A stretch of DNA of 64,000 nt from the NCBI RefSeq assembly GCF_056712565.1, contig NZ_CM160072.1; one strand, written 5' to 3'. The position numbers were made by a program, and so were the translations under genes. The notes under the pieces were generated by a model, which ran no database searches, was not told the DNA's origin, and saw nothing but the letters and a program-made list of their open reading frames with translations. This document shows, one piece after another, positions 6,662 through 54,230 of the stretch; position 1 is the stretch's first letter, and each line of letters begins with the position of its first letter.

Positions 6662-8625
<1,964 letters not shown>

Positions 8626-8701
8626 AGATTCTCCAGAGGTAATGTAGGGATTGTTTTAATTCCCGCTCCCTTATGGGAGAAGGTTAACGCTTGGGTAACC
8701 C

Positions 8702-8907
8702 TTGCCGAATGTAGGCCGGATAAGGCGTTATACGCCGCATCCGGCAATCAATGCCTGATGCGACGCTGTCGCGTCTTATCAGGCCTACAGCCGTTGCCGA
8801 ATGTAGGCCGGATAAGGCGTTCACGCCGCATCCGGCAACCAGCGCCTGATGCGCCGCTGTCGCGTCTTATCAGGCCTACAAACCGTTACCGACTCGCATC
8901 CGGCAAT
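8702..8907. repeat. BIME: tandem duplication of a 92-bp unit of two REP-like palindromes (about 2.2 copies)
   Basis: Unit starting at 8702 repeats at 8794 with a few substitutions, followed by a partial third copy; contains GCCGGATAAGGCGTT..ACGCCGCATCCGGC and GCCTGATGCG..CGTCTTATCAGGCCTAC. Confidence 0.85.
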
Positions 8908-8913
8908 TGTGGG

Positions 8914-10872
8914 TTACGATGGCATCGCGATGGCCTGCTTCTCTTCAAGCAGCTTCTCGACTACGCCAGGATCGGCAAGCGTCGAGGTATCGCCCAGGTT
9001 GCTGGTATCGCCCGCCGCAATTTTGCGCAGAATACGGCGCATAATTTTGCCGGAGCGGGTTTTAGGCAGGGAGTCGGTCCAGTGCAGCACGTCTGGCGTC
9101 GCCAGCGGGCCAATCTCTTTACGCACCCAGTTGCGGACTTCTGCGTACAGTTCTGGTGACGGTTCCTCCCCGTGATTAAGCGTGACGTAGGCGTAGATCG
9201 CCTGACCTTTAATATTGTGCGGAATACCGACCACAGCGGCTTCGGCAATTTTCGGATGCGCCACCAGCGCCGACTCAATCTCTGCCGTCCCCAGGCGGTG
9301 ACCGGAGACGTTCAGCACGTCGTCCACGCGCCCGGTGATCCAGTAATAGCCATCTTCATCGCGACGCGCGCCGTCGCCGCTGAAATACATATTTTTGAAG
9401 GTGGAGAAGTAGGTCTGCTCAAAACGTTCGTGATCGCCAAACAGAGTACGCGCCTGACCCGGCCAGGAGTCGGTGATCACCAGACTGCCTTCGGTGGCCC
9501 CCTCCAGCGGGTTACCTTCGTTATCGACCAGCGCTGGTTGCACGCCGAAGAACGGACGTGTTGCCGAACCGGCTTTCAGCTCGGTAGCGCCAGGCAGTGG
9601 CGTGATCATGAAACCGCCAGTTTCGGTCTGCCACCAGGTGTCGACCACCGGGCATTTCTCATTGCCGATCTTCTTCCAGTACCACTCCCACGCTTCCGGG
9701 TTAATTGGCTCGCCCACGGAACCGAGAATGCGCAGCGACGAACGGTCGGTGCCTTCGATCGCTTTATCGCCTTCCGCCATCAGCGCGCGAATCGCCGTGG
9801 GCGCGGTATAGAGAATATTGACCTGATGCTTGTCCACCACCTGCGCCATACGGGCAGGCGTCGGCCAGTTCGGTACGCCTTCAAACATCAGCGTGGTCGC
9901 GCCGCAGGCCAGCGGGCCATACAGCAAATAACTGTGTCCGGTAACCCAGCCCACATCGGCGGTGCACCAGTAGATGTCGCCCGGATGATAATCAAAGACA
10001 TATTTAAAGGTCAGCGCCGCGTACACCAGATAACCGCCGGTAGTGTGCAGCACGCCTTTTGGCTTACCGGTAGAACCGGAGGTATAGAGAATAAACAGCG
10101 GATCTTCGGCGTTCATCTCTTCCGCCTGGTGCTGATCGCTGGCTTGCTCAACCAGGTCGTGCCACCACAGGTCGCGCCCTTCCTGCCAGTCAATTTTTCC
10201 GCCAGTACGCTTCAGTACCACCACATGCTCTACGCTGGTGACGTTCGGGTTTTTCAGCGCGTCATCAACGTTTTTCTTCAGCGGAATACTACGCCCGGCA
10301 CGCACACCTTCGTCGGAAGTGATCACCAGTCGTGAACTGGAGTCGATAATGCGTCCGGCAACGGCTTCCGGCGAGAAGCCGCCGAAAATCACCGAATGTA
10401 CCGCGCCAATGCGGGCGCAGGCCAGCATCGCGACCGCGGCTTCCGGTACCATCGGCATATAAATCGCAACTACGTCACCTTTTTTAATGCCCAGTTCGAG
10501 CAGGGTATTGGCGAAGCGGCAGACGTCGCGGTGCAGCTCTTTATAGCTAATATGTTTGCTCTGGCTGGCGTCGTCGCCTTCCCAGATGATGGCGGTACGA
10601 TCGCCGTTTTCTTGCAGATGGCGGTCAAGGCAGTTTGCCGCCAGATTCAGCGTGCCGTCCTCGTACCATTTAATGGACACATTACCGGGGGCAAAGGAGG
10701 TGTTTTTCACCTTCTGGTACGGTGTGATCCAGTCGAGAATTTTTCCCTGTTCGCCCCAGAAGGTATCTGGTGCGTTAATAGATTGTTGATACATCGCCTC
10801 GTACTGCTGAGGGTTTATCAGGCAACGGTCTGCGATGTTGGCAGGAATGGTGTGTTTGTGAATTTGACTCAT
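8914..10872 (-). CDS. acs: Acetyl-CoA synthetase (AMP-forming)
   Basis: 652-aa ORF recognised along its whole length as E. coli Acs. Confidence 0.95.
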
Positions 10873-19374: not shown

Positions 19375-19441
19375 GTAGGTCGGATAAGGCGTTTACGCCG
19401 CATCCGACATCAATGCCTGATGCGACGTTTGCTGCGCCTAC
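19375..19441. repeat. REP element pair (GTAGGTCGGATAAGGCGTTTACGCCGCATCCGAC / GCCTGATGCGACG..)
   Basis: Canonical REP palindromes between gltP and yjcO. Confidence 0.8.

Positions 19442-54147: not shown

Positions 54148-54230
<83 letters not shown>

Follow-up and report, generated by a model that had tools for sequence, protein, structure and literature searches.

BIME-2 elements are built from Z2 and Y REP units in multiple tandem copies with short linkers, and the number of copies at a given locus differs between strains (Ton-Hoang et al. 2012, PMC3333891). BIME-1 elements combine Z1 and Y units, are single-copy and have a long L linker, often with an IHF site (PMC3333891). The BIME-2 class binds DNA gyrase strongly and, in Escherichia coli, flanks the rayT gene (Nunvar et al., PMC2817692). 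The effect of REP number on mRNA stability and read-through is currently studied at a single locus, REP325 in the yjdMN operon: its removal at the native locus raises yjdN about 8–10-fold and lowers yjdM about 3-fold, an effect that is partly Rho-dependent, and, genome-wide, tandem gene pairs split by REPs have an average expression ratio biased to the upstream gene (REP325 preprint). REP effects are described in the same preprint as strongly context-dependent, terminal REPs not generally lengthening mRNA half-lives. Its text mentions neither acs nor yjcH, and its supplements have acs in differential-expression rows only, with nothing on the acs–yjcH spacer.

Here we describe a BIME-2 array in that spacer, within an operon for acetate uptake and activation, together with its alleles in 5,426 complete E. 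coli genomes and its counterparts in related species. The element is of an already known kind and behaves as that kind is known to, copy-number polymorphism included; what is new is the census and history of this one locus, as details, and no new phenomenon is involved.

A BIME-2 array between acs and yjcH

The window (the whole 64,000-nucleotide stretch of DNA analysed) comes from E. coli ATCC 11775 (= DSM 30083, the type strain), to which it is identical over the 701 bp compared. The operon and the elements of its first spacer, all on the minus strand, are as follows.

6662–8311, minus strand: actP, cation/acetate symporter, 549 aa (1144 bits), with a 4-nt overlap with the yjcH stop
8308–8622, minus strand: yjcH, DUF485 inner-membrane protein, 104 aa
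8623–8698, minus strand: ancestral spacer core, 76 nt, non-repeated, ending at the yjcH start and containing the yjcH ribosome-binding region
8697–8892, minus strand: BIME-2 tandem array of two 91–92-bp units, each an inverted Z2 plus a Y in mRNA sense (Tandem Repeats Finder)
8711–8745, minus strand: Y no. 2, loop variant GCGTATAACGC, −22.1 kcal/mol, 36/37 identical to REP325 Y
8753–8789, minus strand: inverted Z2 no. 2, −20.5 kcal/mol, 34/36 identical to REP325 Z2
8803–8836, minus strand: Y no. 1, GCCGGATGCGGCGTGAACGCCTTATCCGGCCTAC, −21.3 kcal/mol, 35/36 identical to REP325 Y
8844–8880, minus strand: inverted Z2 no. 1, TGTAGGCCTGATAAGACGCGACAGCGGCGCATCAGGC, −15.4 kcal/mol, 33/36 identical to REP325 Z2
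8883–8906, minus strand: remnant of a third, first-transcribed Y unit, 24 nt, its 5′ half TTGCCGGATGCG fused to linker-like AGTCGGTAACGG
8914–10872, minus strand: acs, acetate–CoA ligase, 652 aa (NCBIfam, 1118 bits), with the stop codon TAA at 8916–8914

The array lies wholly outside genes, in a spacer of 291 bp that runs from the acs stop (8914) to the yjcH start (8622). The ORF finder begins yjcH one codon earlier than the annotation does, at a GTG (8625) instead of the ATG (8622), giving 105 rather than 104 aa.

Tandem Repeats Finder reports a period of 91 at 8697–8892, with 2.1 copies, 89% matches, 1% indels and a score of 322. A separate repeat search returns direct repeats with lengths of 58 nt (93%) and 31 nt (97%) and an offset of 91–92 nt, together with an incomplete third copy, 13 nt long, at 8895–8907. 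On self-comparison, identity is 0.62 at a lag of 91 and 0.46 at a lag of 92, split between the two lags because of a 1-nt indel; the maximum in 2,000 shuffles was 0.45 at any lag from 20 to 119. A first-pass annotation had placed a tandem BIME of REP palindromes between acs and yjcH, with a unit of 92 bp repeated about 2.2 times at 8702–8907, and these results bear out its coordinates, periodicity and structure, the partial third copy included.

The inverted-repeat search resolves each unit of the array into two palindromes in opposite orientation, one Y and one Z2 REP, so that the order in mRNA sense is iZ2–Y–iZ2–Y, with TGTAGG and CCTACA feet. Every full palindromic unit has the GTAG/CTAC foot, and the chance expectation for exact REP-type patterns in the window is 0.00. 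Head-to-head linkers are 5–6 nt long and the tail-to-tail linker, TTCGGCAACGGC, about 13 nt. All four full palindromic units fold as RNA into stable hairpins (−15.4, −21.3, −20.5 and −22.1 kcal/mol in the order of transcription); the Y remnant, which starts 7 nt past the acs stop, forms only a weak one (−5.9 kcal/mol). We used local hairpin folds and set aside a fold of the whole spacer, with its long-range pairing between units, since co-transcriptional folding should favour local hairpins.

The acs–yjcH array is the sole BIME-type tandem array in the 64-kb window. Three more single Y-type REP units are present, at 19375–19408 (minus strand), 46316–46349 (minus strand) and 54195–54228 (plus strand), none of them in a tandem array. 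Elsewhere in the window, at 42544–42605, a 21-nt unit occurs three times with a 75% match (consensus GATCGCCGCCGCCAGCTTGAA), and may lie within a coding region.

The element is thus a BIME-2: alternating Y and Z2 REP palindromes in two full units, with a decayed third Y. Y and Z2 units, alternating orientation, a variable number of tandem copies and an extragenic site are all found, and the linkers (5–6 nt and about 13 nt) are short, as BIME-2 requires, the comparison being one of length. The Rfam model naRNA4 (RF02564) matches both units on the plus strand above its gathering score of 59.5 bits, at 76.9 and 73.8; on the minus strand, which is the transcribed one, it scores 55.1 and 47.7 bits, below the gathering score. 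A BIME-1 identity is ruled out by the Z2 units, the short linkers, the tandem form and the absence of the IHF consensus WATCAANNNNTTR from 8697–8907. The IHF binding that the first-pass annotation had entertained is a property of BIME-1 and so does not carry over to this array.

Operon context and spacer core

Gimenez et al. reportedly showed in 2003 that acs, yjcH and yjcG are co-transcribed. The three genes acs, yjcH and actP are reported as co-transcribed (OmrA/B preprint), in keeping with the placement of the array within an operon by the first-pass annotation, and are co-induced in APEC FY26, the allele of which is 100% identical to that of the window. It follows from co-transcription and from the co-induction in FY26 that the array must be transcribed and that read-through must occur. 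On the minus strand of the spacer we found no sigma-70-like promoter and no intrinsic terminator (hairpin plus U tract), the hairpins being followed by linker sequence with no T run.

The core between the array and yjcH (8623–8698) contains a conserved G+C-rich hairpin at 8662–8683, which reads CCUUCUCCCAUAAGGGAGCGGG in mRNA sense, then AAUUAAAACAA, and lies just upstream of the yjcH ribosome-binding site. A role for this hairpin as an intrinsic terminator was ruled out, as it has no U tract.

The K-12 record NC_000913.3 has no REP or repeat_region features in the 45 kb around acs (4265000–4310000), so REP arrays like this one are invisible in its annotation. The yjcH fusion used in the OmrA/B preprint begins at −168, the position of the array start in K-12, a choice that its text leaves unexplained.

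Alleles across E. coli

To take a census of the spacer we searched 5,426 complete E. coli genomes by megablast. Every allele was represented by one query, and the E-value cut-off was so strict that a genome counted only if a single colinear alignment ran over almost the entire query. Six allele classes were counted.

One unit (K-12 type): spacer 199–200 bp, 3,631 genomes
Two units (the window allele, including variants of 290 and 302 bp): spacer 290–302 bp, 200 genomes, 130 of them at 99% identity or more
Three units (NGF1; CFT073, ATCC 25922): spacer 382 or 393 bp, 216 genomes
Four units: spacer 472 bp, 166 genomes
Divergent one-unit allele, typical of ST131: spacer 209–212 bp, 749 genomes
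One intact Y REP plus an ERIC-like element: spacer 225–226 bp, 334 genomes

Together these account for about 5,295 genomes (97.6% of the 5,426), and a search with the flanks only, blind to the repeat, gave a sample of 60 spans consistent with the census. That copy number may differ between strains, as had been suspected from the window, is thereby confirmed, with arrays of one to four units. Carriers of the two-unit allele include the B2 strains UTI89, S88, E2348/69 and APEC FY26.

In the ERIC-type allele (for example in E. coli strain 405), an intact Y located 7 nt past the acs stop precedes an ERIC-like element, which takes the place of most of the core. Some 130 genomes belong to none of the six classes; further alleles, possibly of more than four units, may exist among them. 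Partial matches to the four-unit or ERIC-type queries were seen in NZ_CM129866.1 (71% coverage) and in IAI39, NC_011750.1 (67%).

Origin of the array

We used a degenerate pattern of the Acs C terminus to collect 54 loci in other species. In 50 of the 54, yjcH directly follows acs, and the spacers measure 77–294 bp. Those of Enterobacter and Leclercia, at 77–88 nt, consist of the conserved G+C-rich hairpin, AAUUAAAACAA and the ribosome-binding region, and correspond to the window core 8623–8698; REPs are absent from the acs–yjcH spacers of both genera. The hairpin at 8662–8683 is kept from Enterobacter and Leclercia to E. coli, and accounts for the greater part of the 77–88-nt spacers of the first two. 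The core is joined by one intact Y REP, 7 nt past the acs stop, in E. whittamii and in a divergent genome labelled E. coli, and the one-unit form occurs in E. albertii and in Escherichia sp. MOD1-EC7003.

This distribution shows the array to be an insertion, specific to the Escherichia lineage, upstream of a conserved core of about 76 nt. Other repeats occupy the spacer in other genera, namely a REP of another sequence with an ERIC-like element in Citrobacter and ERIC-like sequence in Klebsiella and Raoultella, and the acs–yjcH spacer is a hotspot for different repeat families in many genera. Because some relatives keep the same gene order without the array, any effect of the array on the operon should be modulatory and dispensable.

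The first Y unit can be followed through successive stages of decay. An intact Y occupies the position of the remnant in E. whittamii, in the divergent ‘E. coli’ and in strain 405. From this form the series runs through a mini-hairpin (ST131 type) and the form of AHB18, CFT073 and ATCC 25922 (11 nt longer) to the 24-nt remnant of K-12 and the window.

Changes in unit number

Unit 1 of the window, which is proximal to acs, is identical to unit 1 of the three-unit allele of NGF1 and of the two-unit allele of AHB18. Unit 2, proximal to yjcH, is one base different from the only unit of K-12, and likewise from unit 2 of NGF1, and the last units of NGF1 and AHB18 resemble each other (2 differences). 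The comparison implies that the B2 alleles derive from one another through entire units gained or lost, the breakpoints falling within the repeat. The four-unit allele is composed of K-12-like units (2–5 differences) and not of the B2-type unit 1 (5–6 differences), which indicates an independent amplification. Compared in this way, the alleles show gains and losses of whole units on more than one occasion among E. coli lineages.

The copy changes would have arisen by unequal homologous recombination or by replication slippage between the 91–92-bp direct repeats, processes expected to leave such a pattern. RayT, the REP-associated tyrosine transposase, may have helped: rayT is intact in ATCC 11775 (3730659–3731156 of the record, between yafL and a truncated lfhA), and has been reported lost from some B2 strains (PMC3333891). 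Local amplification after transposition or recombination was proposed for such elements by Ton-Hoang et al. (PMC3333891).

Proposed function in the operon mRNA

In the function that we propose, the message of the operon would include four stable hairpins, transcribed as the complement of naRNA4, and these would act as a barrier to 3′-to-5′ exonucleases that shields the upstream acs segment. The same hairpins may also form a partial, Rho-assisted attenuator that cuts read-through into yjcH and actP, the outcome being more acs than yjcH–actP message. Newbury et al. reportedly showed in 1987 that REPs of the mal operon stabilise the mRNA upstream of them.

By analogy with other REP loci, of which REP325 is the closest experimental model, we infer that the array likely gives partial protection to the acs transcript and attenuates read-through into yjcH–actP. 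The small RNAs OmrA and OmrB pair at the yjcH translation start and repress yjcH–actP, and they spare acs despite its co-transcription (OmrA/B preprint); a decay barrier between acs and yjcH would give that result. The composition of the core in mRNA sense (C 26% versus G 18%) is compatible with Rho loading, as a weak hint. The orientation of the array, opposite to that of REP325 as judged from the better Rfam score on the non-transcribed strand, means that the REP325 results may not transfer quantitatively. Furthermore, most E. coli have one unit and related genera have none, so that any effect of the array is dispensable. Taking BIME-2 identity and this account of function in the operon together as the best explanation of the locus, we give the combination a probability of roughly 0.8.

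Liang, Rudd and Deutscher reportedly found in 2015 that a REP lying no more than about 15 nt from a stop codon cuts protein yield through ribosome stalling. Such stalling could apply to the alleles with an intact Y 7 nt past the acs stop, and would be less likely in the window, where this hairpin has decayed.

Among the alternatives, the one that survives best holds that the array is a selfish or neutral repeat without measurable effect on the operon, tolerated in a non-coding landing site for enterobacterial repeats. The spacer does hold different repeats according to lineage (Citrobacter, Klebsiella, Raoultella and 334 E. coli genomes) and none in Enterobacter and Leclercia; the first Y unit is visibly decaying through internal deletions; and the effects of REPs, by published accounts, depend on context and are often not seen. 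However, exonucleases are unlikely to ignore four mRNA hairpins of −15 to −22 kcal/mol, REP-separated tandem gene pairs are on average biased to the upstream gene, and the alleles are stable within large lineages, with 130 genomes at least 99% identical to the window. We regard neutrality as possible but somewhat unlikely.

An alternative that places the main role at the level of DNA is a good deal less probable. The array would be a strong site of gyrase binding and cleavage, taking up the positive supercoils that arise as acs is transcribed, and its gyrase capacity would grow with the number of units. It is of the right class for this, with Y and Z2 units and short linkers, the BIME-2 class being reported as strongly gyrase-bound and cut in vivo (PMC2817692, citing Espeli and Boccard 1997). 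Yet relatives without the array keep the same operon, and a gyrase site would be compatible with a role at the RNA level and would not exclude it.

That each unit is the gene of a naRNA4-type nucleoid-associated non-coding RNA, condensing the chromosome with HU, is highly improbable, even though RF02564 matches both units above its gathering score. The matches above threshold are on the plus strand only, antisense to the operon, where no promoter-like site was found, and those on the transcribed strand (55.1 and 47.7 bits) stay under it. The Rfam model is in effect one Y/Z2 pair of REP325, so any BIME-2 matches it, and in a recent study REP325 and naRNA4 had no measurable effect on nucleoid compaction (REP325 preprint). 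We rejected this RNA gene on the grounds of strand.

Assemblers can collapse or expand short tandem repeats, but an assembly artefact or a chance similarity is refuted to near certainty, since an identical 701-bp stretch is present in many independently sequenced complete genomes (S88, UTI89, E2348/69 and FY26 among them), the window allele is colinear in 200 genomes and at least 99% identical in 130, alleles of one, three and four units each occur in 166 to 3,631 genomes, and shuffles never reached the observed periodicity.

The protection and attenuation that we favour could be carried one step further. Unit number might set the expression of acs relative to yjcH–actP in heritable steps, like a dial, and the alleles of particular lineages (for example two to three units in B2 extraintestinal pathogens such as UTI89, S88, CFT073 and APEC FY26) would then persist through selection for acetate scavenging and not through drift. 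If this were true, each added hairpin would shield acs mRNA further and attenuate the transporter genes more strongly. This extension is a long shot, to be held more loosely than the gyrase alternative.

Comparison with known systems

The array shares with BIME-1 (RIB/RIP) an inverted pair of REPs in a 3′ untranslated region. BIME-1, however, is single-copy with a Z1 unit and an L linker that has an IHF site, whereas the acs–yjcH array is tandem, with Z2 units, short linkers and no IHF consensus.

With REPINs and their RAYT transposases (Bertels and Rainey; Nunvar et al.), it shares an inverted REP pair as the repeated unit and a single-copy rayT in the host. It differs in how it varies: whole units come and go locally, always at the one site, and this does not call for transposition.

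REP325 of K-12 (yjdM–yjdN; 12 alternating Z2/Y units; the source of naRNA4) is similar both in its unit types, with 33–36 of 36–37 nt identical, and in its setting, an operon in which it separates two genes of the same direction. Its unit is 100 nt long, with longer linkers, and occurs 5.8 times in K-12, whereas the acs–yjcH array has two units of 91–92 nt, and the two arrays have opposite orientations relative to transcription. The effects of REP325 on its flanking messages have been shown experimentally, whereas the acs–yjcH array is known here from sequence. With 0 to 4 units in one operon, the acs–yjcH locus could serve as a natural allelic series for relating REP number to mRNA stability and read-through.

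Finally, the array shares several features with the BIME-2 family (Gilson, Bachellier, Hofnung; PMC3333891): alternating Y and Z2 units, GTAG/CTAC feet, short head-to-head linkers, tandem arrangement, an extragenic site and a number of units that varies with the strain. Nothing essential sets it apart, as linkers unlike those of REP325 are usual for BIME-2 (PMC3333891). For this family, the locus provides a concrete population picture of one site, with six allele classes, gain and loss of whole units and an Escherichia-specific origin.
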